Source: an uncultured Collinsella sp.
GTDB taxonomy: Bacteria > Actinomycetota > Coriobacteriia > Coriobacteriales > Coriobacteriaceae
NCBI GenBank assembly: GCA_900541685.1
Contig: UQKM01000003.1
Span: 69,576-133,575 of the forward strand
Length of the DNA stretch: 64,000 nucleotides
Reading direction: 5' to 3'
Shown here: positions 2,667-18,621 of the stretch, piece by piece
How positions within the stretch are numbered: position 1 is the stretch's first letter
Layout of the letters: every line of letters begins with the position of its first letter
Translations under genes and position numbers: made by a program
The notes under the pieces: generated by a model
The model's database searches: none
What the model saw: only the letters and a program-made list of their open reading frames with translations
What the model was told of the DNA's origin: nothing

Positions 2667-3443
2667 CTAGTAGCTCACCTGGCAGGGAATGCCGAGGGCT
2701 TGGACGCGCGCGGCAATGGCGTCGAGCACCTCGGGCGCCGCTTTAGCAAGGCCGGCGACCGGTGTCTCGCGCGCCACCGTGTAGATGGTCGCTTCTTGCG
2801 GGCGAATGCGCTCAAGCGCCGCGAGCCAGGGGGCAACGTACTCCTCGCCGGTGTTGTCGATGAGCTTGCCCTGATACTCACCGGTCAAAAAGATCGTCTG
2901 GATAATAACGTGACCGTCAAAGCTTGCGAACGTCTCGATCTGGTGCTCGACGTCGTAGGGGCCGACAGGCTGGTCGAGCAGCTGGATAAACGCCGGGTCG
3001 ACCGTATCGAGCTTAAGAATGTTGTCGTCGACCATCATGAGCGCATCGTGTACCTGGGGACGGTCGGCGCGCGTGCCGTTGGAGAGCACAGCAATCTTGG
3101 TGCTTGGGGCAAGTTCGTCGCGCAGTGCGACGGCACCGGCGATGGCCTGCGGAAACTCCGGCGCGGCGGTGGGCTCGCCGTTGCCTGCGAAGGTGATTAC
3201 ATCGGGGAGCTCGCCCTCGGCTGCCATCTCGTGTAACTTTGCCTCGAGCGCGTCGAGCACCACGGCAGCCGTGTTATACGGCTCGTGGCAGGGGCGCTCG
3301 GCGTTGAGGCCGTTTTCGCAGTAAATGCAGTCGAACGTGCAGATTTTGCCGCTGGCCGGCATCATGTTGACGCCGAGCGAGAGACCAAGGCGGCGGCTGC
3401 GAACGGGCCCAAAGATGGGGCTGGCATTCAAAAACGTAGACAT
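2667..3443 (-). CDS. radical SAM domain protein (COG0731-like Fe-S oxidoreductase)
   Basis: CTFDCIYC (CxxxCxxC) motif preceded by the conserved SRRLGLSLGVN segment. Start chosen at the ATG 9 nt after GAGGAG. Confidence 0.75.
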   Translation of the reverse strand: MSTFLNASPIFGPVRSRRLGLSLGVNMMPASGKICTFDCIYCENGLNAERPCHEPYNTAAVVLDALEAKLHEMAAEGELPDVITFAGNGEPTAAPEFPQAIAGAVALRDELAPSTKIAVLSNGTRADRPQVHDALMMVDDNILKLDTVDPAFIQLLDQPVGPYDVEHQIETFASFDGHVIIQTIFLTGEYQGKLIDNTGEEYVAPWLAALERIRPQEATIYTVARETPVAGLAKAAPEVLDAIAARVQALGIPCQVSY

Positions 3444-3668
3444 AGACATATGCTCCTCAAGACAATTGTGCCTAAGCATAGCATCGGCTCCGAAGCAAGG
3501 TGCGGGCTCTTGCTTTACAAGTTTCGTTTTTGCACGTCGCTCATTATGCCGTGCCATGAAAAGCCTCAGGTCGGGTACAGTTAATCTGTTAACAAAGCGT
3601 AAAGCAATGCGGGTCTATCCAACCGTACTGACGGGCAACTGGATGGGCATTGACGATGGGAACACAGT

Positions 3669-4676: not shown

Positions 4677-6556
4677 ATGCTCAATAATCACGAGGCCAAT
4701 CTAACCGACGAGGAGGCTGCCGCCGAGGTCGCCCGTGTCGCGAAGACCTACCCCGTGGTACGTTTGCTGTCGGCCGACCAGATAACGGGCGATCCCAACT
4801 GCCTGCTCGCCGGCGATCGGTGTCCCTGTCTGCGCCAGTCAGGTCTGGAGGTCTTGGCAGGTTCCGGTGAGGTGTCGGAACGGCTGCTCAACGATGGCGT
4901 TGAGTACCGCGCTCGCTTGCGCCCTCTGAAGGTCGAGGGCGAGCCTCACGTCCTGCTGATGGTGCGTCCGATTGATGAACAGGAGACTGCAGAAGAGGAC
5001 CTTGTCTACACCGACGTGCTGACGAACGTGCGCAATCGCCGATATTACGAGGAAAAGCTTCGCAGCGCCCGCATGCAGGCCGGTGTGGCCATGATCGACC
5101 TTGATGATTTTAGGGCCTTCAACGATACGTATGGCCGCCATGCCGGCGACCTTGCGCTTGGTGCCGTGGCGACGGCCATACGCAGCGGTGTTCGTTCGAC
5201 TGACGAGCTTGTGCGTTTTGGCTGCGATAAGTTTGTGGCCGTCATGCCCAATATTCCCTCTGATGACTTTGCCCGTCGTCTGCGTCAAGTATCCGATGCC
5301 GTTCATTCCACGATTATTCCGGGGCATGAGCGCGTTAGCTTGACGGCATGCGTTGGTGGCGTTCGCATTAATGGCGAAACGGTCGATGAGGGCGTTAGCC
5401 AGGCTGTCCAATTATTGAGCCGCGCTAAGGCAAAAGCCGGTACAGTCGTGACCGATGCCGAATCCATCGAGGCCTTCCAAAGCGAAAAGCCTACGGTGCT
5501 TATTGTCGATGACTCCGAGATGAACCGAGCCATTCTCAACGAGATGCTCAAGGACGAGTATTGCATCCTCGAGGCCGATAACGGTCGCGCGGCGCTCGAC
5601 ATGGTCGACCGCTATGGCGATGAGTTGTCGCTCGTGCTGCTGGACATTGTCATGCCGGGCATGAACGGCTTTGAGGTGCTGGGCGATCTGTCGCGTCGAT
5701 CGAATATTGACAATTTGCCCGTCATCATGATCTCGAGCGAAGATTCCGACGAAGTGGTGCTGCGCGCGTATGAGCTGGGTGCCTCGGACTATGTCAACCG
5801 CCCGTTTGACTCCCGTGTCGTGCGCCGCCGTGTAAGCAACACCATCCGCCTGTACGCCAAACAGCGTCGTCTAACGAGCCTGCTGTCCCAACAGTACAAC
5901 GAGCGCGTCAAGAACAGCCGCATGCTCATTGACATCATGGCCGGCGTCATGGAGCTCCGCAATGGCGAGAGCGGCAGGCACGTTGCGAACATCGAGAAGC
6001 TGACCGAGCTACTGCTTGCCTGCCTGGTCCAGCGTAGCGACAACATCTCCCTCGACAACGAGGAGCGCTCCACGATTGCCCTGGCTTCGGCGCTGCACGA
6101 TATCGGCAAGATGTCGATTGACGATGCGATTCTCAACAAGCCCGGGCGCCTCACGCCCGAAGAGTTCGAGATTATGAAGACGCATACCACGATCGGCGCC
6201 GACATGCTGCGTGAGTTGGGTCGCCATCACGCCGGCAATGCGCTTATGGAATATGCGTACCAGATTGCGCCTGGCATCACGAGCGCTGGGACGGCAAAGG
6301 TTATCCCGACGGCCTTAAGGGCGACGATATTCCCATCGCCGCACAGGTGGTGTCGGTGGCTGACGTGTACGATGCGCTGACGAGCGTGCGCGTGTACAAG
6401 GATGCTATTCCGCACGAGGAGGCGATCCAGATGATCCTGGACGGCAAGTGCGGTACCTTTAACCCGCTGCTGCTCGACTGCCTGCTCGAGGTGCAAGACC
6501 GTATTGCCGAAACATTGGCGCGCCCCGCCGAGGTCGTTGCGCTTCCTACGATTTAG
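4677..6556 (+). CDS. degenerate GGDEF / REC receiver / HD-GYP c-di-GMP phosphodiesterase; apparent -1 frameshift near 6265-6280 splits it into ORFs 4677-6380 and 6347-6556
   Basis: GGDEF-domain core with RFGCDKF in place of GGDEF. REC domain (LIVDDSEMNR...LLDIVMPGMNG). HD-GYP motifs (HDIGK; HHERWDGKGYP...VADVYDALTS); the HHERWDG segment is read in frame +2 relative to the upstream part. Confidence 0.75.
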
Positions 6557-6962: not shown

Positions 6963-7026
6963 GAGCGTGGATAATCTCCCGTTTTAGGCCCGGTGGCGGT
7001 CTCAAAGTGGGAGATTATCCACGCTC
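6963..7026. repeat. 18-bp perfect inverted repeat (GAGCGTGGATAATCTCCC / GGGAGATTATCCACGCTC) with 28-nt loop
   Basis: Read directly from the sequence. It begins 27 nt after the Hpt stop, at the high-GC / lower-GC transition. Confidence 0.8.
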
Positions 7027-7141: not shown

Positions 7142-7702
7142 ATGTCCAACAGCGTTCAGCGTATGGCCAAGGCGGGCGAGACTGTAAGGAAGCTTGGCTT
7201 TTGCATGGCGGTCGTTTTTGCGGGAATGCTCGTCGCTTTTGCCGCGTTGGTTGTTTACGTGATCTGGTATGCGGTTGCAAACGTTGTTTCTGTCGATTCT
7301 TTCGGTGTCGTGACGCTTCTCGATGGCGGGAGCATCGTTATCCCAAGCGGGCTGTGCCTGGCACTCGTCGTGAGTGTTTCGCTTGTCGTTTTGTGCGGAA
7401 TCAGCCGTGACATTTCGCGGGGCGTATCGCCCTTTACCAGGGCGCATGTGCGGCTTATCCGTGTTCTCGCGCTTGCCTTTGCTGTTAACGCCGCGGTTTC
7501 GCTTGTTGGTGCCTATGGATCGGTCAATCTTACCATTGGTGGGCTGGAGCTTTGCGTCGTGCCTCATTCCTTCGTTATCGCGATTTGCCAGGGCGTTGCC
7601 TTTGACGCGGGGTCGCTTATCGGCGCGGCCGTCTGTTTGTTTGTCTCGGTGATCTGGAGCTATGCCTCGCTGCTCCAGGAGCAGTCTGACGAGCTTGTGT
7701 AG
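7142..7702 (+). CDS. DUF2975-like small polytopic membrane protein
   Basis: About 4 TM helices and about 186 aa. Immediately upstream of a YozG-type XRE regulator, which is the classic DUF2975/HTH pairing. Start at the ATG after GAGGGTGAG. Confidence 0.6.
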   Translation: MSNSVQRMAKAGETVRKLGFCMAVVFAGMLVAFAALVVYVIWYAVANVVSVDSFGVVTLLDGGSIVIPSGLCLALVVSVSLVVLCGISRDISRGVSPFTRAHVRLIRVLALAFAVNAAVSLVGAYGSVNLTIGGLELCVVPHSFVIAICQGVAFDAGSLIGAAVCLFVSVIWSYASLLQEQSDELV

Positions 7703-7710
7703 GAGGAAAC

Positions 7711-8040
7711 ATGAGCTATCTCATCATCGAGCTTGAGACGCAGCTGCTTAAGACCGGAAAGACCAGCTCTGATCTGATTCGTGCCACGGGGCATACTCCG
7801 GCTAATATTTCTAAGCTAAGAAATGGAAAAATTAAAGCTATTCGTCTTAAGACGCTTCTTGAAATCTGTGATGAGCTTGATTGTCAACCGGGAGATATTA
7901 TTCAGCGCGTGAGCGAGAAAGAGCTCGAGGAACTTATTGTCGAGCGCGCGAAGAATGCCGTGAGGCAGATGCGGGATGGCAGAGGCAATGAGGCGTCGCT
8001 TCCGACATCGGTCTTCGCTGTAGATTTGAGCGACGAGTAG
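7711..8040 (+). CDS. XRE-family helix-turn-helix transcriptional regulator (YozG-like)
   Basis: HTH segment DLIRATGHTPANISKLRNGK. Strong SD GGAGGAAAC. Lower GC than the flanking DNA. Confidence 0.8.
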   Translation: MSYLIIELETQLLKTGKTSSDLIRATGHTPANISKLRNGKIKAIRLKTLLEICDELDCQPGDIIQRVSEKELEELIVERAKNAVRQMRDGRGNEASLPTSVFAVDLSDE

Positions 8041-8185
8041 CATAAAAAGAACAACTATAACGAAATATCAGTGTAACGGAACCCGTGTCTAACACGGATT
8101 CTTTGTTTATTAATTATCTTGACAAATATAAGTTATCGGCAAACAATAACATCAAGAACGAACGATAAAAGAAAGGAGGAACGAT

Positions 8186-8314
8186 ATGAGCTGGATTGTA
8201 AAGCCGAGTTATGTGGACCCCGGTGGTGGGTGCAACGGTTACTGCAAGGCATTCTGTGGAGCACGCGTCTGCGTCAATAACTGCAGCAAAAACTTGTGTG
8301 TTGTTAATTTCTAG
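8186..8314 (+). CDS. 42-aa six-cysteine RiPP precursor peptide candidate (MSWIVKPSYVDPGGG-CNGYCKAFCGARVCVNNCSKNLCVVNF)
   Basis: Below the ORF-track length cutoff. Strong SD AAAGGAGGA 6 nt upstream. Leader ends in GGG, then the core carries six Cys spaced every 3-4 residues. Followed by a stem-loop plus T-run, with a rSAM/SPASM enzyme and ABC transporters downstream. Confidence 0.6.
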   Translation: MSWIVKPSYVDPGGGCNGYCKAFCGARVCVNNCSKNLCVVNF

Positions 8315-8322
8315 CAGTTGCA

Positions 8323-8362
8323 GCTGCTGCCAGGCGACAGTCTGGCAGCAGCGGTTTTGTTA
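8323..8362 (+). terminator. intrinsic terminator/attenuator between precursor peptide and downstream ABC genes
   Basis: 11-bp stem GCTGCTGCCAG/CTGGCAGCAGC, loop GCGACAGT, then GGTTTTGTTAT. Confidence 0.6.
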
Positions 8363-8382
8363 TCAAGCAGAATAGGAGGCCA

Positions 8383-9108
8383 ATGAGCGCATCAGCGATA
8401 AAGCTATCAAAGGTGTCAAAGCGCTATGGAAAACGGTGTGTGTTGCATGACGTTTCCTTCGAGGTGAATCAGTCTGAACTTTGCGCCCTTGTTGGTGCAA
8501 ACGGGGCGGGCAAAAGCACGCTTATTAAAATAGTGCTGGGCCTCTGTGAGCCATCGTCGGGGAGCGTGGAGCTCTTTGGAGGCAAGTCGAAAAAAGAGCT
8601 GAGCCTGATGCGTACGCGTGTCGGCTATGTGCCAGATTCCAGCGGAGCATACCAATCCCTCAGTGCGGTGGAGAATCTTCGGATCCGATGTGCGGAATGG
8701 GGGCTCGATGAGACACGTGAGGTTCCTCGCGTCTTGGGCCTAGTCGGGCTGGACGTCGATGAGAAAAAGAGCGTGAGCAGTTTTTCTCTGGGAATGAAAC
8801 GGCGACTGGATATAGCTACGGCTTTGTTGGGCGACACCGATGTACTAATTTTCGATGAGCCGGCAAATGGGTTGGACCCGCTGGGCATCGAGAGTATATG
8901 GGCCCTTATCGGCCGATTGAATCGAGAACAGGGTAAGACCATGCTCATCTCTAGCCATGATTTGGATGAGTTGGCATCGGTTGCAACAAGTTGCGTGTTT
9001 CTTCATGACGGCGAACTGCTAAAAAAGGAATCGATGGACGTCATAAGGGATGGGGCGTCGTCCCTAAAAGAGTATTACAGGCGCTTGATGAAGGCGGTCT
9101 CGCTATGA
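8383..9108 (+). CDS. ABC transporter ATP-binding protein (immunity-type, ABC-2 partner)
   Basis: Walker A GANGAGKST, signature and Walker B motifs. SD AGGAGG. Confidence 0.9.
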   Translation: MSASAIKLSKVSKRYGKRCVLHDVSFEVNQSELCALVGANGAGKSTLIKIVLGLCEPSSGSVELFGGKSKKELSLMRTRVGYVPDSSGAYQSLSAVENLRIRCAEWGLDETREVPRVLGLVGLDVDEKKSVSSFSLGMKRRLDIATALLGDTDVLIFDEPANGLDPLGIESIWALIGRLNREQGKTMLISSHDLDELASVATSCVFLHDGELLKKESMDVIRDGASSLKEYYRRLMKAVSL

Positions 9109-9929
9109 AGCGGGCGATCCATCCCATAAAGGCGGACATGATGCGTTTACACAGGATGTTTCCGGCGCAGTTTTGTCTTGCGCTTATGCTGGCGTTCGGC
9201 CTTCTCTTCGGTGTCTTTCTAAAAAGCGGAACAACGTTGCTAGCCTTTGGCAATAGCGTCTGCGGGGAGGATATTGGATTCTTTTGGAATGTAATCGACT
9301 CTTCTGCACCTGATGAGTCCCTTGTGCGCAGTGCTTTTGCTGGCACCTCTCTGTTCGTTCCGCTCATCGTTTGCCTGGTGATTTTACAGGAGCGCGGCTA
9401 TGAAGAGGGATGCCGAATTTCTTCAGCAAGAGGTCTTGCCCGCTTTAACGGGGTTCTGGCACATGTACTTTCGTCTGCTTTAATAATCGGCGCAGCATAT
9501 AGTGCGCTTTGCCTTCTTCTTTTTGCAATAGCCGTAACACGTGGAGGGCAAAACTACGTGCATGGCATGCTGGCTGCATTTTTGCCTGCGATGATAATCA
9601 ACGCCGTATTGGTGATATCGGTTGCGTTGGAGACGATGACCATCTATCGGATTACAGACAGCGCTGTATTGAGCGGGGCTGTAATAATAATTGGATTTGT
9701 CATGAGCTTGACGCTCTACGGAACCTTCCTTCAGGCACCTATACCATCCTTGCGATGGATCTTCCTCCTTCCGGGGCCGTACCTTGGAGCCGGATGTGCC
9801 CTTGGGTATAGCGATATGGGGCAGCTGACGCTTCTGGGATATGGCGTGGCAGCTGGCTGTCTATCGGTATTGATTTACGCTCTCGTGACCTGTCGTGTCG
9901 GAGGTGTGCTCAATGGCTCGTCAGATTAA
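9105..9929 (+). CDS. polytopic membrane protein, ABC-2-type permease candidate
   Basis: ATGA start/stop overlap with the ATPase gene; about 6 predicted TM segments. Confidence 0.55.
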   Translation: MKRAIHPIKADMMRLHRMFPAQFCLALMLAFGLLFGVFLKSGTTLLAFGNSVCGEDIGFFWNVIDSSAPDESLVRSAFAGTSLFVPLIVCLVILQERGYEEGCRISSARGLARFNGVLAHVLSSALIIGAAYSALCLLLFAIAVTRGGQNYVHGMLAAFLPAMIINAVLVISVALETMTIYRITDSAVLSGAVIIIGFVMSLTLYGTFLQAPIPSLRWIFLLPGPYLGAGCALGYSDMGQLTLLGYGVAAGCLSVLIYALVTCRVGGVLNGSSD

Positions 9930-10731
9930 AAGGTTCCTCCATTCAGAATTGAAGCATGTGAGCGAATGGACGTACGTCTTAATCCTGGCAATTTATGCGT
10001 GTATGGTGATATTGCAGCTTAATTCTTTCCCGATGTGGTTCTGTAGCCTCCGCGAGGGCAGTTTCTTGGGCTTTTTCCCAGACCCGACGCTTAAACTGTC
10101 GGCAGAGGACGCCCTTCTATTTGGTAATGCAGAGGTTTTTCGCGGCTTGCTGTTCAATGTGGCCCCGTTGGCTCATGCATTGTTCTTTCCGCTTATCGCG
10201 CCTTGCGTTGTCCCACGCTTTGCCAGTTCGAGCTTTGTCGAGGAACCGTGGGGGCTGTCGGAGGCTCGGGGAGGGAAGCGGGCGTGCGTTACCGTTGCGC
10301 GAGTGATGCTGTCTTCTTTCGCCCTATTGGGCGCGTTTATCCTGTCAAGTGTCGTTTTGTACTGTCTTAACTGCGCAATCGTTTTGGATGCTCAACAGTA
10401 TTTCAACCTGAATATGTTTTGCGATCGACTTCTTCTGGCGAGTGCGGTCTGCCTTGCATACGTGGTCTCTTGCGTGATCGTTGTTTCCTATTTTGGATCC
10501 GGCTTCGGTCCTATTGGCATGCTGTTGCTTGTCAACGTCGTAACGATCTACATACAGGTCGGAGCCAATTCCATGCTTCCGCTTCCAGCCTCGATGCTCA
10601 TGTGGATTTGCGGCGTGACCCCGTTGGGGGACGGTCAATGCGTTTCGATTTTAATTGACTGCCTCATAAACGTAGCAAGCGTTTTTGCCATCTGCTTTAC
10701 GGTCGACCGATTGCGGTCGAGATTTCTTTGA
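9913..10731 (+). CDS. polytopic membrane protein, second permease candidate
   Basis: Start re-called to the ATG after GGAGGTG. Hydrophobic throughout. Confidence 0.5.
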   Translation: MARQIKRFLHSELKHVSEWTYVLILAIYACMVILQLNSFPMWFCSLREGSFLGFFPDPTLKLSAEDALLFGNAEVFRGLLFNVAPLAHALFFPLIAPCVVPRFASSSFVEEPWGLSEARGGKRACVTVARVMLSSFALLGAFILSSVVLYCLNCAIVLDAQQYFNLNMFCDRLLLASAVCLAYVVSCVIVVSYFGSGFGPIGMLLLVNVVTIYIQVGANSMLPLPASMLMWICGVTPLGDGQCVSILIDCLINVASVFAICFTVDRLRSRFL

Positions 10732-10752
10732 TTGTTTGTGAGGGATAAACAT

Positions 10753-12045
10753 ATGAGGCCGTCTCAATACAACCTGATTGAAGACCACGGCGAAAGAACG
10801 CTGGTGATGAATTCAAAGACTGGCGCAATCCTTTCGTTGGATAAACAACATGCAGAAAGTATGTGCCGCATGGTATCGGGAACCGAATGGGAGCCAGATG
10901 AATTGCGCGAAGCGTTGCTTCAAGGAGGAATGCTGTTAGAAGATGATCGTGACGAAAAAGAGGAAATGAAGGCGATGGGCCGTCTTGTTCGATTTTCCAA
11001 TCGCTCTCTAGGCATGACGATAGCACCGACATTGGAGTGCAACTTCTGTTGCCCATACTGTTATGAAAAAGGACAACGCAAAACGACAATGACTCCGGAG
11101 GTTGAAGACCGGCTTGTCTCATTCGTGAAGGAGCGTTCACGGGGGCTGAGCGAGCTTGAGATCGGTTGGTATGGTGGAGAGCCGTTGCTGCAAGTCGATA
11201 GAATTCAGCGGCTTACGGAGCGTATAAAGGCGATCCTTAATCCAGAGTGCTCCTATTCGGCATCCATCGTTACAAATGGATATCTTCTGACGCCAGAAGT
11301 GGCCGAGACTCTCGCGGCTTGTGACGTCAAGATGGCTCAAATAACCTTGGACGGGTCTCGAAAGGACCACGATTCTCGGCGGTTCTTGCGGAACGGACAG
11401 CCGACGTACGATGCGATTCTAGACAACGTTTCTAAAGTCACGCATCTGTTGGATATTTCCATCAGGTGCAATGTCGATGCCCATAACATTGTCGGTGCTG
11501 GCGATTTGCTGGATGCACTCGAGGAAAAGGGCCTTAAAAACAAGGTTGGATTCTATCTGGCGCCTGTCGACAATATTAACGATACGTGCCCAAGTGACAG
11601 TAGTTGTTTTTCGATGGAGGCGTTTTCTCAGGAAGAGCTGGACTTTTATAGTCATGCAGTTGATAGGGGGTTCCACGTTGACCTGACGGTGCGCTTTAAT
11701 CCGGCTATATGTGGCGCCGTTTGTGCAGGGTCGTTTGTAGTGGATCCGGAGGGCTATCTTTATAAATGTTGGGACGAAATCGGGATGCGTGAACGCTGCG
11801 TCGGTACGCTTGCCGAAGGGCCGAGGATGAATGCTCAGCTGGTCCAATGGCTAAACTATGAGCCGAGCGATCATGAGTGTGAAGAGTGTTTTGCCTATCC
11901 CTCATGCATGGGAGGTTGCCCTAATCACGCTCTTCATGGAGGGTCAAAACAGTGCGTATCTCAAAGGTATCAGGTGCGCCAACGAATGATTTTGACCGAG
12001 AAGGCTCAGCGATTGCTTTCGGAACTGGATTCAGCTCATGTTTAA
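10753..12045 (+). CDS. radical SAM/SPASM peptide-modifying enzyme with N-terminal RRE-like domain (sactipeptide/ranthipeptide-type maturase)
   Basis: CNFCCPYC rSAM cluster motif. C-terminal Cys-rich SPASM region (CGAVCAGS...KCW...CEECFAYPSCMGGCPNH). About 90-aa N-terminal beta-strand/helix segment consistent with a PqqD-like recognition element (RRE). Start at the ATG 7 nt after GAGGGA. Confidence 0.85.
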   Translation: MRPSQYNLIEDHGERTLVMNSKTGAILSLDKQHAESMCRMVSGTEWEPDELREALLQGGMLLEDDRDEKEEMKAMGRLVRFSNRSLGMTIAPTLECNFCCPYCYEKGQRKTTMTPEVEDRLVSFVKERSRGLSELEIGWYGGEPLLQVDRIQRLTERIKAILNPECSYSASIVTNGYLLTPEVAETLAACDVKMAQITLDGSRKDHDSRRFLRNGQPTYDAILDNVSKVTHLLDISIRCNVDAHNIVGAGDLLDALEEKGLKNKVGFYLAPVDNINDTCPSDSSCFSMEAFSQEELDFYSHAVDRGFHVDLTVRFNPAICGAVCAGSFVVDPEGYLYKCWDEIGMRERCVGTLAEGPRMNAQLVQWLNYEPSDHECEECFAYPSCMGGCPNHALHGGSKQCVSQRYQVRQRMILTEKAQRLLSELDSAHV

Positions 12046-13657
12046 TCTCTGCGCAAGAACAATAATTAAGAATCCAAAGTATATAACCTATCTTCTAATG
12101 TGCCTGCTCTCGCTTGTGGTTGGTCTCGCAATTCCTTTTCTGACGGGACAACTGGTCAACAACTTTGTCGGTGTCGCGCGAGATGGGGAAAGCGCAATCG
12201 CCATCGGCGCTGAGATAGCAGCGCTGGGTATTGTGCGAGCCGGTTTGAATTGCGTCAGTGAGCTGGTCTATGTCGATCTGCAAACACATGTGGGATTTGC
12301 ATTGAATGAAGAGGTGATAAGTCACGTTCAAAGGCTACCACGGGTCTTCTTTTCTAATTTTGATGCCTCATATTGCAACCAACAGATTAATCATGACGCT
12401 AACGATTTGGTGATATTTGTTATAAACGCAAGTGTCCAAAGCGTGAGCAATATAGTGACGTTGCTTGTGGTGTTTGTTGTCCTGGCGACCATAAACGGTC
12501 ACCTGGCAATGCTGTGTATGGCTCTTGGCTTAATAGGTGGCGCGGTCTATTCGCTTTTCAAAAAGTGTTTGTTCGCAAGAAGTTTCGAGGCTCAAGAGCA
12601 GGAGGCTCGATTCTTTTCCGATCTGGAGAAGCAGCTTAGCAACGCACAATTTATCCGCAGACATGTTCTATTCGAGGTTTTCAAGCAAAGGCTTGAGCAC
12701 TCTTTTGCAGAGCTATATCGTTGCGTTTATCAGAACCAGCAAATTAATGCGACCTTTACGTTTGCCAACACTGTCGTCACATCTTTGGCACAGGGTGGAA
12801 TCTTGATCCTGGGCGCAAAGGAAGTTCTCGACGGCAATTTGCTGCCCGGCTATCTTATGACGGCGCTAAGCTATTACTCCTATTATTCTTCGGCTATTGA
12901 ATTCTTCCTTGCGCTGGGCAAGGACTATCAAACGTCAAAAGTATCCTACGAGCGTTTACGGCGCTTGCTGGACATGCCAGAGGGCTCAAACGGGGCCATT
13001 ATCCTCGCCGATGTTTTCGAGGTGAGCTGTTCCGAGCTGGCGTATAGCTATCCTGAGTCTGAAAAAACCGCGTTCAGAGACATTCGAGCTTCTTTGGAAA
13101 AAGGAAAGGTATACGGAATCGTTGGGCCGAACGGTTCCGGTAAGAGCACGCTGCTGGATGTGATAAGCGGTTGCGATCCAGAAAACTGCAAGGGTGATAT
13201 TTGGATTAACGACAAGCCCCTGAGCTCTCTGGACCGCTATGCGCTGCGGAAGCGCAATATCGGGATTACTGAGCAGGAGCCGCCCCTGACCGAGGGGTCG
13301 ATACGGGACAATTTAACTCTTTGCTGCAGAAGCACTGAAGAGCGTGACCTTGAGAGCCTCATTGAGAGAATGGGGCTTAAAAAGATGGTCGATTCAAGTG
13401 GTGGACTTGATGTCGAGCTGGACGATAAGCAGAACAACATTTCAGGAGGGGAGAAGCAAAAAATGGCGATAATTCGCCAGCTGCTGAAAAACCCGGACGT
13501 GATGATGTTTGATGAGCCGACATCTGCACTTGACAGTCAAAGCAAGCAGGCGTTTATCGAAATCCTTAAGGAAAGAAAGGGGCGACATATCACGGTCATC
13601 GCTACGCACGACCCTGTGCTTATTTCGGCATGCGATGAGGTGATTGAAATTGCCTGA
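12038..13657 (+). CDS. fused ABC transporter permease/ATP-binding protein (exporter type, no C39 peptidase domain)
   Basis: N-terminal 6-TM domain. C-terminal GPNGSGKST, LSGGEKQK and DEPTSALD motifs. ATG overlaps the maturase stop. Confidence 0.9.
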   Translation: MFNLCARTIIKNPKYITYLLMCLLSLVVGLAIPFLTGQLVNNFVGVARDGESAIAIGAEIAALGIVRAGLNCVSELVYVDLQTHVGFALNEEVISHVQRLPRVFFSNFDASYCNQQINHDANDLVIFVINASVQSVSNIVTLLVVFVVLATINGHLAMLCMALGLIGGAVYSLFKKCLFARSFEAQEQEARFFSDLEKQLSNAQFIRRHVLFEVFKQRLEHSFAELYRCVYQNQQINATFTFANTVVTSLAQGGILILGAKEVLDGNLLPGYLMTALSYYSYYSSAIEFFLALGKDYQTSKVSYERLRRLLDMPEGSNGAIILADVFEVSCSELAYSYPESEKTAFRDIRASLEKGKVYGIVGPNGSGKSTLLDVISGCDPENCKGDIWINDKPLSSLDRYALRKRNIGITEQEPPLTEGSIRDNLTLCCRSTEERDLESLIERMGLKKMVDSSGGLDVELDDKQNNISGGEKQKMAIIRQLLKNPDVMMFDEPTSALDSQSKQAFIEILKERKGRHITVIATHDPVLISACDEVIEIA

Positions 13658-13687
13658 CGGGTTAGTGGGCCTAGCATATCAAATTCA

Positions 13688-13721
13688 GGGGGGCGGGCAC
13701 TGTAGCTGGTGCCCGCCCCCC
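13688..13721. terminator. GC-rich hairpin between convergent genes (13-bp stem GGGGGGCGGGCAC/GTGCCCGCCCCCC)
   Basis: Read directly. No strong T-run on either side; it marks the island's downstream edge. Confidence 0.5.
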
Positions 13722-13756
13722 TGGCATGAAAGGCTTTAGCCTGTGTGGTTCGTGAA

Positions 13757-14566
13757 CTAACGGGCCTGCTTAACCTTGGCCGCTGCTTCGACAAACGACT
13801 TCCACAGGTTAAAGTCGGTCTCGAGCGTCTTCCACGTGTACTCAGGGTGCCATTGCACGCCCAAGCAGAATGGCTGGCCTTCGACCTCGATGCACTCGGG
13901 AACGCCGTCGGTTGCCTTGGCGACCAAACGCGTGCTCTTACCCAGATGATCGACGCAGCAGTGGTGTGCGGAGTTGGTCTGGATCAGCCTGTGCCCGCCA
14001 AGCGCGCGCTCCAACAGCGAGCCCGGCACGACCTCGACGGGATGCACGGGGTCGTTGAGCACGTGGCTATGGCGCCACTGCGTGCGGCCCTCGCGAGCGC
14101 CCAGGCTCGGCACGTCCATGCACAGGGTGCCGCCAGTGGCGACATTGAGCAACTGCGTGCCGCGGCAGGTGGTAAAGAGCGGCTTTTTGGCGCGGAGTAC
14201 CTCGCCGACCAGCTTAAACTCAAAGCTATCGCGGATCTCGCAGCAGAGGGTGGGGTCGTAGGGTCGATCATCGCCCCAACGTTTGGGGTTGACATCGGGG
14301 CCGCCGGGAATGGCGATGCCGTCGGCGATATCGACGTAATGACGGATGACCTCAATGTCCTCGGTGATGGACATCTGCAGCGGCAGGCCGCCGGCGGCAA
14401 GGATGGCATCGACAAAGACACTTGCGATTTCCTCGTTGGGGGAGAGCGTTTCGCTTAAAAACGGCTTCGCCTCTTCCCAGCGCGGCGCCACCAGGATGAG
14501 CGGACGGTCGGCGGGGTCGACGTTGACGTGCGGGGTGTATGACGATGAAGTGCGAGTTCCGATCAT
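13757..14566 (-). CDS. class I glutamine amidotransferase-like / gamma-glutamyl hydrolase (peptidase C26, PuuD-like)
   Basis: GATase-1 catalytic Cys region (TCRGTQLLNVATGG) and His near the C-terminus. Start taken at MIGTRT; it cannot extend past the glnQ stop at 14619. Confidence 0.7.
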   Translation of the reverse strand: MIGTRTSSSYTPHVNVDPADRPLILVAPRWEEAKPFLSETLSPNEEIASVFVDAILAAGGLPLQMSITEDIEVIRHYVDIADGIAIPGGPDVNPKRWGDDRPYDPTLCCEIRDSFEFKLVGEVLRAKKPLFTTCRGTQLLNVATGGTLCMDVPSLGAREGRTQWRHSHVLNDPVHPVEVVPGSLLERALGGHRLIQTNSAHHCCVDHLGKSTRLVAKATDGVPECIEVEGQPFCLGVQWHPEYTWKTLETDFNLWKSFVEAAAKVKQAR

Positions 14567-17047: not shown

Positions 17048-18043
17048 CTAGGCGCCGATCTCGGGCAGCTCGGGAACATTGGTGTCGCCCGTACGGTCAC
17101 CGATGCAGATCTGCCACAGCTCAGTCCAGGTGCCGTCGTCCTCGATCTTCTTAAGGAAGTCGTTAACGAAGGTGACGCCGTCGGAATCGAGCGGCAGACC
17201 GATACCATAGGGCTCCTTGCTGCCGAAGGGCTTGCCGGCGATCTTGTACTTACCGGGCTCGCGGACCAGGGCGCTCTGCTGCATGTTGTTATCGATGACG
17301 TAGGCGTCAACGCGGCCCTGCTGGAGTGCCTGGCGGGCCTCCTCGTCGGTCTTGAACTCCTGCTGGCTGGCCTTGGGAGCGAACTCCTCCAGGATGGCGG
17401 GGCCGTTGGAGCCGGACTGGACGGCGACGTTCTTGTCGGCCAGGTCGTCGACGCTCTTGATGTCGTCGTTATCGGCGAGCACCAGGATGGCCTGCTGGGT
17501 GTAGTAGTAGGGGCCGGCGAAAGAGACGAGCTTCTTGCGCTCGTCAGTGATGGTGTAGGTGGCAAAGACGGCGTCGACCTGGCCATTCTGCAGGACGGAC
17601 TCGCGCGTGTCCGAGGTCACCTGGGTGATCTCGACCTTGTTCTCGCCCAGAATGTAGTTGGACAGGAGCTGTGCGATACCGGCGTCGAAGCCGCGGGTCT
17701 GACCGTCTTTCTCGTTGAGGAGGGAGAAGAGCGTGGAGGTCTGAACGCCACCGATCTTAAAGACGCCGGCGTCCTTGACGGCCGTGGCCCAGGTGCTGGC
17801 GGCGATGGCATCGTCATCGGCCTTGGGGCCGTTGTCGACGAGCTTGTCGAATGCCTTGGCGTCGAGCGTGGTGGAAACTTCGGTATCCTCGGAGCTCTTG
17901 GAGGAGCCGGCGGCGGAACCCTTGTCAGCCTCGGCGCTGGTGTCGGAGCAGCCGGCAAGACCAAGGCCGGCGACGGTTGCGAAGGTGGCGGCAACGAAGC
18001 CGCGGCGGTCGAGAACGACCTGCTGGGAGAGGTTCTTGCTCAT
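17048..18043 (-). CDS. amino-acid ABC transporter substrate-binding lipoprotein
   Basis: LAGC lipobox and periplasmic-binding-protein family 3 fold. Confidence 0.85.
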   Translation of the reverse strand: MSKNLSQQVVLDRRGFVAATFATVAGLGLAGCSDTSAEADKGSAAGSSKSSEDTEVSTTLDAKAFDKLVDNGPKADDDAIAASTWATAVKDAGVFKIGGVQTSTLFSLLNEKDGQTRGFDAGIAQLLSNYILGENKVEITQVTSDTRESVLQNGQVDAVFATYTITDERKKLVSFAGPYYYTQQAILVLADNDDIKSVDDLADKNVAVQSGSNGPAILEEFAPKASQQEFKTDEEARQALQQGRVDAYVIDNNMQQSALVREPGKYKIAGKPFGSKEPYGIGLPLDSDGVTFVNDFLKKIEDDGTWTELWQICIGDRTGDTNVPELPEIGA

Positions 18044-18160
18044 AGTAGAACACCTTTCTCAATAAAATCCCTAGCGGTTGAGTAGAGTTATACCCTATCC
18101 CGCTCAAATGGGTCAACACGAAATAACTCAGAAACATACTTGCCTTATGGGTAATTCTAC

Positions 18161-18193
18161 CTACCAAAAAGGGACAGGTTTATTTTGGCAGGT
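18161..18193 (+). repeat. hairpin repeat A3
   Basis: Identical to A1 including the flank TTTTATCTGGGCAAACG. Confidence 0.9.
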
Positions 18194-18268
18194 TTTATCT
18201 GGGCAAACGTCAGTTATTACAGCTGAGATAGCGCTTTGCAGACGGCATGATCGCTCGAAGCGGTCGCT

Positions 18269-18274
18269 ATAATG
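18269..18274 (+). promoter_or_regulatory. TATAAT -10-like hexamer upstream of a mini-ORF (no good -35)
   Basis: Perfect TATAAT at 18269-18274, 32 nt upstream of an AAGGAG SD. Confidence 0.3.
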
Positions 18275-18318
18275 GCGGCAATGCGACGCATATGCATATA
18301 TAAGTAAGGAGATCGCGT

Positions 18319-18357
18319 ATGAACGGTTATTCGTTTTTCGCTCCGACCATGATTTAA
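18319..18357 (+). CDS. 12-codon mini-ORF (MNGYSFFAPTMI) with canonical SD; leader-peptide-like
   Basis: AAGGAG at 18306-18311 with a 7-nt spacer to the ATG. Stop codon is followed 2 nt later by hairpin repeat B1. Confidence 0.3.
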   Translation: MNGYSFFAPTMI

Positions 18358-18359
18358 AA

Positions 18360-18392
18360 CCACCACAAAGGGGACAGGCACCTTTGTGGTGG
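18360..18392 (+). repeat. hairpin repeat B1 (CCACCACAAAGGGGACAGGCACCTTTGTGGTGG)
   Basis: 12-bp perfect stem with loop GGACAGGCA; 2 nt after the mini-ORF stop. Confidence 0.9.
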
Positions 18393-18426
18393 TTCTGGCC
18401 GATGCAGTGGCATGCCTTGCTGCTTT

Positions 18427-18565
18427 GTCTCGATCTGTAACATCTGCAGCCGTTTTTGCCGAGTAACTGTTACAGATTGAGACAAAGGTTTGGGACTAAG
18501 ACGTCTTATCTCGATCTGTAACAGTTAGACGGGAATTCGGGCCCTAGATGTTACAGATTGAGATA
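18427..18565 (+). repeat. two tandem ~58-nt inverted-repeat units (16-17-bp arms TCTCGATCTGTAACA ... TGTTACAGATTGAGA, about 25-nt spacers), 80-nt periodicity
   Basis: Read directly: unit 1 at 18427-18483 and unit 2 at 18507-18565. Both carry the same single arm mismatch. Confidence 0.75.
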
Positions 18566-18586
18566 ATCGCGTCGCGAAAATAAAAA

Positions 18587-18621
18587 CCTCCGCAGGGGTG
18601 CTTCCCTTGCGGAGGTTTTTT
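18587..18621. terminator. bidirectional intrinsic terminator (dxs on minus strand; small plus-strand transcript)
   Basis: AAAAACCTCCGCAGGGG-tgcttc-CCTTGCGGAGGTTTTTT; the T-run overlaps the dxs stop codon. Confidence 0.8.

Follow-up and report, generated by a model that had tools for sequence, protein, structure and literature searches.

An open reading frame (ORF) of 42 codons at positions 8186-8314 of the forward strand, within a 64,000-nucleotide stretch of Collinsella DNA (C. aerofaciens group; contig UQKM01000003.1; hereafter the window, meaning the whole stretch that was analysed), encodes a peptide with six cysteines, MSWIVKPSYVDPGGGCNGYCKAFCGARVCVNNCSKNLCVVNF, which is probably the precursor of a ribosomally synthesized peptide with post-translational modifications (RiPP). 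On this reading, to which we assign a probability of about three in four, the peptide would be thioether-crosslinked by the radical S-adenosylmethionine (rSAM) enzyme encoded in its own gene cluster and then exported, while an ABC-2-type ATP-binding cassette (ABC) transporter would confer self-immunity, a helix-turn-helix (HTH) protein would regulate expression and a leaky terminator would separate the peptide gene from the genes that follow it. The preliminary description of this DNA had already proposed an rSAM-modified RiPP precursor with a glycine-rich junction between leader and core, and that proposal is supported by the rSAM gene in the operon, by the pattern of selection along the peptide and by homologous precursors in other bacteria.

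The peptide gene

The translation of 8186-8314 agrees exactly with the six-cysteine small ORF of 42 amino acids in the preliminary description. The near-ideal Shine-Dalgarno (SD) sequence claimed for it is also there: AAAGGAGGA lies at 8172-8180 (+), its GGAGG ending 6 nt 5' of the ATG, and is conserved in loci L013, L025, L024 and L026. Among the 837 ATG-initiated small-ORF candidates in the window, a GGAGG SD combined with four or more cysteines occurs solely in this one. To follow the ORF in relatives we relied on the downstream rSAM gene, which was found in 43 loci among species-representative genomes, 37 of them covering the peptide region. Far from being absent from these syntenic Collinsella clusters, which the preliminary description had named as an outcome that would tell against it, the ORF is present at the same offset as an intact 42-aa frame in 34 of the 37; the other three comprise one frameshift and two clean deletions of the ORF.

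The nucleotide changes among nine full-length alleles divide the peptide in two. Over the leader region (codons 1-15, MSWIVKPSYVDPGGG, 8186-8230 (+)), which has the motif M-x-W-[ILV]-x-x-P shared by the family described below, change is almost purely synonymous, with nonsynonymous polymorphism (pN) ~0 and synonymous polymorphism (pS) 0.1-0.32. Over the core region (codons 16-42, CNGYCKAFCGARVCVNNCSKNLCVVNF, which together with the stop codon occupies 8231-8314 (+)), pN/pS is ~1. The six core cysteines, at positions 16, 20, 24, 29, 33 and 38 (spacings 4, 4, 5, 4 and 5), are unchanged at the protein level in all nine alleles, with synonymous TGC/TGT swaps present, and the replacements cluster at positions 22, 28, 30, 31, 37, 39, 41 and 42. 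N17-G-Y-C20 is invariant among the Collinsella core alleles, and the core closes with the C-terminal module C-x3-C-x4-C-x3-F. The pattern of conserved leader and variable core holds in the 28 distinct 42-aa alleles found in public protein data. Core types among the strains include A (KAF...VVNF), B (KTF...LVNL) and C (KKF...VVYF). Judged from these substitutions, the leader is under purifying selection and the core is variable with its cysteines fixed.

Short as it is, and given that Pfam and NCBIfam searches returned no match above threshold for it, the ORF might be suspected of being a chance reading frame and no gene at all. This suspicion is effectively refuted by a leader in which the changes are synonymous only, by conservation at one and the same offset, by the score against a hidden Markov model (HMM) of the family and by the SD; by these comparative measures the ORF is a real gene, far beyond chance. 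The claim that it had been missed through a length cutoff stands in part. The ORF is functionally unannotated, but an identical peptide has already been deposited (CUP09264.1 / UniRef A0A174KB45, 'Uncharacterised protein [Collinsella aerofaciens]') and is called on at least 1000 public contigs, so it has not been universally missed. A literature search found no product or activity of the window peptide and nothing on this locus or peptide, though its coverage is incomplete and an earlier description is possible.

A precursor family beside one rSAM clade

When a profile of the Collinsella peptide alleles was run against 1.84 billion representative proteins, it returned solely their own frameshifted or read-through variants and two spurious long proteins, and remote family members were therefore found through the genomic neighbours of related rSAM genes. 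Around rSAM relatives of 54%, 52%, 49% and 46% identity, all on metagenomic contigs, the architecture of the cluster is kept, with one or two small ORFs in the peptide slot (MTWINEPDGGIAPACGNCFIFAHGTCPTKCSNQSCTIRF; MSWVNEPEDGVAAACGNCFFYAHGNCKTKCASQSCTIRF; MEWYMWPQGGGGGTCTAYCRDFNACIAKDICYVRISL; MNWVIDPCSNVQGGGSGGCRNYHPCSRCSCFGVYVHF), and relatives of ~38-42% identity in Clostridium botulinum, C. perfringens, Lysinibacillus and Ruminiclostridium have one to three ORFs of like kind at their flanks, e.g., MRWINEPNVIEPNTRSCGANICWSRDGNNDCQADYCGVRVCLTRFCLVNF. In taxonomic terms the family extends to other Coriobacteriia and to Clostridia/Bacilli (rSAM identity 38-54%). Relatives on megaplasmids of the Bacillus cereus group (35% identity) have a degraded context and were uninformative.

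We define this family by an N-terminus of the form M-x-W-[ILVY]-x-x-P, a cysteine-rich core ending C-x3-C-x4-C-x3-aromatic and a position adjacent to this rSAM clade, all of which the window peptide has. An alignment of 15 sequences, of which 13 come from other taxa and two are the window peptide and a Collinsella allele, shows no variation at M1, W3, C29, C33 or C38 and at least 90% conservation at P7 and C16. When the HMM was built with Collinsella left out, from 15 non-Collinsella members including three C. perfringens peptides, it scored the window peptide at 22.2 bits (E 1.6e-5), against at most 9.8 bits for 2000 composition-matched shuffles and at most 8.7 bits for other small ORFs of the window. 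These neighbourhoods show that the link between the precursor and this rSAM clade is obligate across phyla. The hydrophobic VVNF C-terminus had been taken as a sign of membrane targeting; this is not supported, and what the alignment brings out is that a C-terminal aromatic residue is a feature of the family.

The radical SAM/SPASM maturase

The rSAM/SPASM gene of the cluster lies 2.4 kb downstream of the peptide gene in the same operon (10753-12045 (+)) and encodes a predicted peptide maturase of 430 aa, counted from the ATG at 10753, the ORF also opening at a TTG at 10732. Its rSAM core scores 53.7 bits against PF04055 (cutoff 29.5), with the CX3CX2C motif read as C-NFC-C-PY-C, and 40 homologues all retain C96, C100 and C103. 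The SPASM domain scores 47.8 bits against TIGR04085 (cutoff 27) and has the full seven-cysteine motif for two auxiliary [4Fe-4S] clusters, CAGSFVVDPEGYLYKC (Cx9Gx4C) followed by CEECFAYPSCMGGC (Cx2Cx5Cx3C), in which C320, C339, C376, C379, C385, C389 and C401 are invariant in homologues. The ratio of nonsynonymous to synonymous substitution rates, omega, is 0.09-0.14 for this gene, the lowest in the cluster.

An AlphaFold2 model of the enzyme (mean predicted local distance difference test, pLDDT, 90.8) confidently places a beta3-alpha2 domain at the N-terminus, in residues 7-57. The nearest fold in the PDB is CteB, with a TM score of 0.68-0.69 over the full length, and CteB is also the best sequence match among solved structures (E 1.3e-16). 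The Foldseek alignment to CteB is full-length and so takes in the N-terminal domain, for which the Pfam PqqD/RRE models gave no match; on the strength of the model the domain may be described as resembling a RiPP recognition element (RRE). The nearest curated families of the enzyme are all maturases of cysteine-rich peptides, namely TIGR04463, Clo7bot, CefB and PapB.

Relation to named systems

CteA and CteB form a ranthipeptide system in which a thioether joins a cysteine sulfur to the C-gamma of threonine. With this SCIFF/thermocellin pair (PDB 5WGG/5WHY) the window locus has in common a small cysteine-rich precursor beside an rSAM/SPASM enzyme, whose N-terminal domain is, at the window locus, putatively RRE-like. 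The two differ in that CteB is 18-19% identical to the window rSAM, which scores 85.9 bits against the SCIFF maturase model TIGR03974 (cutoff 425), and in that the window peptide gives no match to the SCIFF peptide model TIGR03973 even at E<=10; moreover, the window leader has a different motif, MxWxxxP at the extreme N-terminus, and dedicated ABC-2 and exporter genes are present.

Closer in score are three NCBI-curated systems, Clo7bot, CefA/CefB and TIGR04463, which share the concept of a short cysteine-rich precursor plus an rSAM/SPASM enzyme and for which a literature search found no experimental characterisation. The window rSAM reaches 295.3 bits against TIGR04463 (rSAM_vs_C_rich; cutoff 525, of which five clade members also fall short), 280.4 bits against the Clo7bot maturase TIGR04334 (cutoff 600) and 219.5 bits against CefB (NF038107; cutoff 600). 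The window peptide scores 13.9 bits against the Clo7bot peptide TIGR04333 (cutoff 31) and, with its cysteine spacings of 4, 4, 5, 4 and 5, does not match CefA 'Cys-every-fifth' (NF038108), for which the C. perfringens relatives score 19.3 bits (cutoff 30). When 15 other precursors and five other enzymes of the clade were searched in the same way, none stood at a curated NCBIfam cutoff, and the peptides gave weak Clo7bot/CefA matches.

The beta-thioether ranthipeptides freyrasin (PapA/PapB) and NxxcA/NxxcB resemble the window peptide in having cysteines spread evenly through the core. The window rSAM is similar to PapB (3e-37; 128.6 bits against a cutoff of 340), whereas the window core is without repeated CxxxD motifs; N17-G-Y-C20 resembles the NxxC element, but the wider family does not conserve it. 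Sactipeptides usually divide into an N-terminal half with the cysteines and a C-terminal half with the acceptors, and the cysteine layout of the window core departs from this two-half pattern. The likeness to the sactipeptide bacteriocins (subtilosin/AlbA, ruminococcin C/RumMC and SkfA/SkfB) lies in the rSAM/SPASM thioethers, the antimicrobial function and the ABC immunity and export, which at the window locus would be counterparts deduced from the genes. SkfB is a weaker fold match than CteB, and the window rSAM scores 49.7 bits against RumMC (cutoff 720), the maturase of ruminococcin C, a sactipeptide of gut-commensal source (PMC6760926). Since all enzyme and peptide scores stay well under the curated cutoffs, we regard the window system as part of an unmodelled and uncharacterised sister clade of thioether RiPPs and assign it to none of the named families; in kind it is a conventional system.

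Proposed biosynthesis and the points against it

In the pathway that we propose, the peptide gene would be transcribed from its own promoter, probably under an operator for the adjacent HTH regulator, and a hairpin with a weak U-tract would stop most transcripts after the peptide gene, yielding an excess of precursor mRNA, while the genes further downstream would be expressed from read-through transcripts. The RRE-like N-terminal domain of the rSAM enzyme (10753-12045) would bind the conserved MSWIVKP...GGG segment of the precursor; 5'-deoxyadenosyl radicals from S-adenosylmethionine, together with two auxiliary Fe-S clusters, would then drive crosslinking, so that the six core cysteines would be joined to carbons of other residues in thioether bridges of the sactipeptide or ranthipeptide type. 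A peptidase-less ABC exporter (12038-13657) would secrete the product and the ABC-2-type transporter (8383-10731) would protect the producer. The thioether chemistry is suggested by the cysteine-invariant core beside a CteB/PapB-like enzyme, and the step itself is modelled by analogy on CteB, PapB, NxxcB and AlbA, enzymes for which the mechanism of rSAM thioether formation has been described (PMC9389541).

Several considerations weigh against this reading. The support for it is genomic in kind throughout. Neither the peptide nor the enzyme reaches the cutoff of a curated family, which makes the chemistry an extrapolation from distant relatives, CteB at 18-19% identity among them. The family alignments yield no conserved acceptor-residue motif for the crosslinks, and the window encodes no leader peptidase. 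Some 35-40% of related lineages in which the peptide gene persists have an inactivated rSAM gene, and modification may thus not always be needed. Lastly, co-variation between permease and peptide alleles, considered as a sign of cognate immunity, was set aside: the association decays smoothly with distance from the peptide gene and is therefore indistinguishable from linkage.

Recurrent loss of the maturase and of the precursor

The rSAM gene has an inactivating lesion in 13 of 37 full-length Collinsella loci, or in 15 loci when two partial ones are added (L011, L014, L015, L016, L020, L023, L026, L031, L034, L035, L037, L038, L041, L042 and L043). These 15 lesions, seven nonsense codons and eight 1-nt frameshifts, all fall at different sites across ~40 Collinsella lineages, and each null allele has a single lesion, at the tips. 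Two isolates are among those affected (L020, strain 1001216st1_F6, nonsense at codon 127; and L034, Collinsella sp. i06-0019-1H4, frameshift at nt 392), the indels agree with independently reported locus lengths, and the split gene recurs in independent metagenome gene calls, where P0012, with 52 member sequences, comprises residues 183-430 only. Elsewhere lesions are nearly absent: none in the exporter (0/41), the ATPase (0/37), permease 1 (0/38), the HTH gene (0/37), the membrane protein at 7142-7702 (0/37) or four flanking housekeeping genes (0/35), and a single one in permease 2 (1/38). The excess over the exporter gene, which is adjacent and longer, is significant (Fisher's exact p = 1.6e-5). 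The lowest omega of the cluster, taken together with single lesions at the tips, indicates that the rSAM gene has been maintained long-term yet knocked out repeatedly.

The precursor gene has itself been lost twice, by deletions between short direct repeats (ATGAGC...) in L024 (5610-5630) and L026 (5645-5665) that are independent and precise and are equivalent to window positions 8186-8352 and 8186-8388, respectively. In L041 the precursor has a -1 shift in an A5 run; this run, AGCAAAAAC at 8285-8292 (codons 34-36), is a recurrent frameshift site, with variants in metagenomes such as P0006. The idea that the rSAM gene decays only after precursor loss, which L026 and L041 might suggest, was rejected, since the precursor is undamaged in most rSAM-null loci and L024 has lost the precursor with its rSAM gene intact. 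A reading of the lesions as selenocysteine or programmed-frameshift sites was likewise dropped, TAA and TAG being included and every site being different.

The loss of the rSAM gene would fit the shedding of costly production while immunity and export are retained; a relaxed need for modification is the alternative. A rival view is that the peptide acts unmodified, for instance as a disulfide-bonded secreted peptide, with the rSAM enzyme as an accessory or as the maturase of some other substrate. Most of the 13 full-length loci with a broken rSAM gene do retain an intact peptide gene and exporter, as this view would have it, but we consider it highly improbable: the lesions are single, unique and at the tips of a gene whose omega is the lowest in the cluster, and the peptide family is found solely beside this rSAM clade across phyla. 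Collinsella is, furthermore, an anaerobic gut bacterium, in which the spontaneous formation of disulfides may be disfavoured.

Promoter, candidate operator and hairpins

The peptide gene is preceded by TTGACA at 8119-8124 and AACAAT at 8142-8147, which with a 17-nt spacing and 10 of 12 matches make up the top sigma-70-like site in a scan of 7600-14000. The TTGACA -35-like hexamer of the preliminary description is thus present, one base away from the 8120-8125 at which it had been placed. An imperfect palindrome, GTTATCG-N5-CAATAAC at 8132-8150, overlaps the -10 hexamer, so that the predicted promoter and candidate operator together span 8119-8150 (+). The arrangement TTGAMA-N8-GTTATCG-N5-(C)GATAAC/CAATAAC recurs 5' of the peptide genes in L013, L025, L044, L052 and L047, and in L047 the palindrome is perfect (about 3403-3421). 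Its recurrence in loci whose proteins are 46-54% identical to those of the window suggests control by the HTH protein that is conserved along with it, and suggests that the palindrome is a candidate operator for this HTH_26 regulator. The regulator, an XRE/Cro-type HTH protein of 109 aa at 7711-8040 (+) (Pfam HTH_26, 1.5e-17, 64 bits against a cutoff of 22), is co-conserved in all the divergent loci and would be a candidate repressor of the peptide promoter. A terminator-like hairpin with a T-run follows its gene at 8083-8097 (+) and, as predicted from its position, isolates the peptide gene as a transcription start of its own.

The stem-loop that had been placed immediately 3' of the ORF was found at 8323-8352, where a stem of 13 bp (9 GC) is followed by GGTTTTGTTAT; with its weak U-tract, GGUUUUGUUAU, the element extends over 8323-8363 (+). 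It folds at -33.2 kcal/mol (z = -4.75), a stability that 0 of 200 shuffles equalled. The stem is kept in all alleles, with one compensated pair (C-G to U-A). Between the hairpin and the start codon of the ATPase gene there are 30 nt, too few to hold a promoter, so transcription of the genes that follow must come by read-through from the promoter of the peptide gene. In L026 a natural deletion joins that promoter and its SD straight to the ABC ATPase gene. The short gap, the compensated pair and the L026 fusion all fit the earlier idea of a partial terminator, and we regard leaky termination (or attenuation) between the peptide gene and the enzyme and transport genes as likely.

A short ORF directly 5' of a strong terminator-like hairpin, upstream of an operon, is also what one would expect of a cis-acting regulatory leader peptide, in which the translation of a cysteine-rich stretch controls the hairpin and the peptide itself is functionless. 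Here the N-terminal amino acids are conserved across phyla whereas the nucleotide sequence and the hairpin are not; relatives have tandem paralogous copies; in some of them the peptide and rSAM genes are on opposite strands; and the minimum-free-energy fold offers no evident alternative antiterminator structure. We therefore hold a regulatory leader to be more improbable still than an unmodified peptide, and retain the RiPP precursor as the preferred reading.

Transport, immunity and the question of signalling

The cluster runs in one direction and consists of the membrane protein gene, the HTH regulator, the peptide, the ABC ATPase, two permeases, the rSAM/SPASM enzyme and an ABC exporter, i.e., seven low-GC genes beside the peptide gene. 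The ATPase of the ABC-2-type transporter (8383-9108 (+); Pfam ABC_tran 2.2e-29), for which we propose a role in self-immunity, has as its best NCBIfam match the lantibiotic-protection ATPase TIGR03740 (2e-53, under the cutoff). It is followed by two polytopic permeases, permease 1 of 274 aa (9105-9929 (+)) and permease 2 of 278 aa (9895-10731 (+)), and upstream of the HTH gene lies a membrane protein of about 186 aa (7142-7702 (+); the longest ORF starts at a GTG at 7007). Permissive Pfam searches with these three membrane proteins gave no matches. In clusters of this type the upstream membrane protein invariably comes as a pair with the HTH gene, homologues of 189 aa adjoining HTH_26 in L039, L044, L047/48, L052 and L054.

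In a variant architecture (L054 and L055) the membrane-protein/HTH pair has moved 3' of the exporter, and a CPBP/Rce1-like intramembrane protein, supported by Pfam, replaces the three ABC-2 genes (L054 4066-4986; L055 3127-4047); a CPBP-like fragment, judged by eye, stands upstream of the rSAM gene at a contig edge in L039 (37-405). The CPBP family is often associated with bacteriocin self-immunity. The closeness of the ATPase to lantibiotic-protection ABC proteins and the exchange for a CPBP/Abi-type protein were counted in favour of immunity, and hence of an antimicrobial peptide; from them we infer that the ABC-2 genes serve self-immunity and that the product is antimicrobial, with regulation by the HTH protein. 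The exporter (12038-13657 (+); 539 aa) is a fusion of permease and ATPase (ABC_membrane and ABC_tran) in which no C39 peptidase domain was found, its alignments to TIGR01193 and TIGR03796 starting at profile positions 164 and 156, respectively.

The same biosynthesis could instead yield a signalling or quorum-sensing peptide, with the ABC-2 transporter and the membrane-protein/HTH pair used for sensing or export. A passage of PMC12940132 that cites Chen et al. (2020) links SCIFF-type ranthipeptides to quorum sensing in clostridia, and the membrane protein, its HTH partner and the operator-like palindrome accompany the peptide gene in all divergent loci. We nevertheless judge signalling rather unlikely. 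Allelic diversification of the core behind a conserved leader is more typical of antagonistic peptides, as are multiple tandem divergent precursors; the lantibiotic-protection-like ABC and its exchange for a CPBP/Abi-type protein speak the same way; and the repeated loss of a biosynthetic gene with the transporters kept fits a pattern of producers and cheaters.

Significance

In prevalence and in number of species, Collinsella ranks with the foremost genera of the human gut, and this prevalence, the allelic diversification of the peptide and the recurrent inactivation of its maturase all add to the interest of the locus. A bolder view, which we put forward tentatively and at well below even odds, is that the locus represents an unrecognised, phylum-spanning RiPP family with an MxWxxxP leader and a cysteine-rich core, whose crosslinks may be unlike the alpha-, beta- and gamma-thioethers and which is kept in Collinsella as a polymorphism of producers and non-producers. 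If this were so, a knocked-out maturase beside retained peptide, immunity-like and export genes would imply either frequency-dependent 'cheater' dynamics or a second role of the peptide that is independent of modification. The gene-specific, recurrent inactivation of the maturase is a clean population-genetic signal of the costs and benefits of RiPP production in a commensal, and the natural core alleles, together with rSAM-null and precursor-null strains, offer a ready genetic series for the study of strain-level antagonism and immunity in the gut. The precursor signature also provides an annotation handle for small ORFs beside rSAM/SPASM genes in Coriobacteriia, C. perfringens, C. botulinum, Lysinibacillus and Ruminiclostridium.

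Possible origin of the cluster, and its surroundings

Over 7.8-13.8 kb the GC content is about 0.45-0.53, as against 0.56-0.64 in the flanks. At the 3' edge of this low-GC island a strong palindromic, bidirectional terminator (13686-13723, either strand; 15 bp, 13 GC) closes the cluster. Among related clusters, that of L044 adjoins a type IV secretion system coupling protein, that of L052 an integrase together with TIR/SIR2 genes, that of L056 a resolvase, and that of L049 a transposase plus a reverse transcriptase. The low-GC island and the mobile-element neighbours of related clusters suggest that the cluster was acquired horizontally, probably from Firmicutes.

Along 7700-13700, synonymous divergence between the window and L013, L025 and L001 is a mosaic. 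Against L025 it is 0.03 in the HTH gene, 0.30 in the precursor, 0.17-0.23 in the ATPase and permeases, 0.025 in the rSAM gene and 0.15 in the exporter, which points to recombination shuffling a cassette of the peptide and ABC-2 genes between backgrounds.

Three observations concern the DNA outside the cluster. The ORF at 4677-6380, a GGDEF-REC-HD protein, has in the window copy a frameshifting indel at gene nt 1595 (about 6271) that places the C-terminal tail of the HD domain out of frame; it is unique to the window in comparison with 33 other Collinsella loci and marks either a pseudogene peculiar to this strain or an error of sequencing. Another radical-SAM-like ORF, unrelated and 296 aa long (2667-3557 (-)), with the motif CTFDCIYC, lies ~5 kb upstream in DNA of normal GC content. 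Finally, an intergenic segment at 18001-18600, after an amino-acid ABC transporter operon, shows a sharp dip in GC content to 0.47 from ~0.62.

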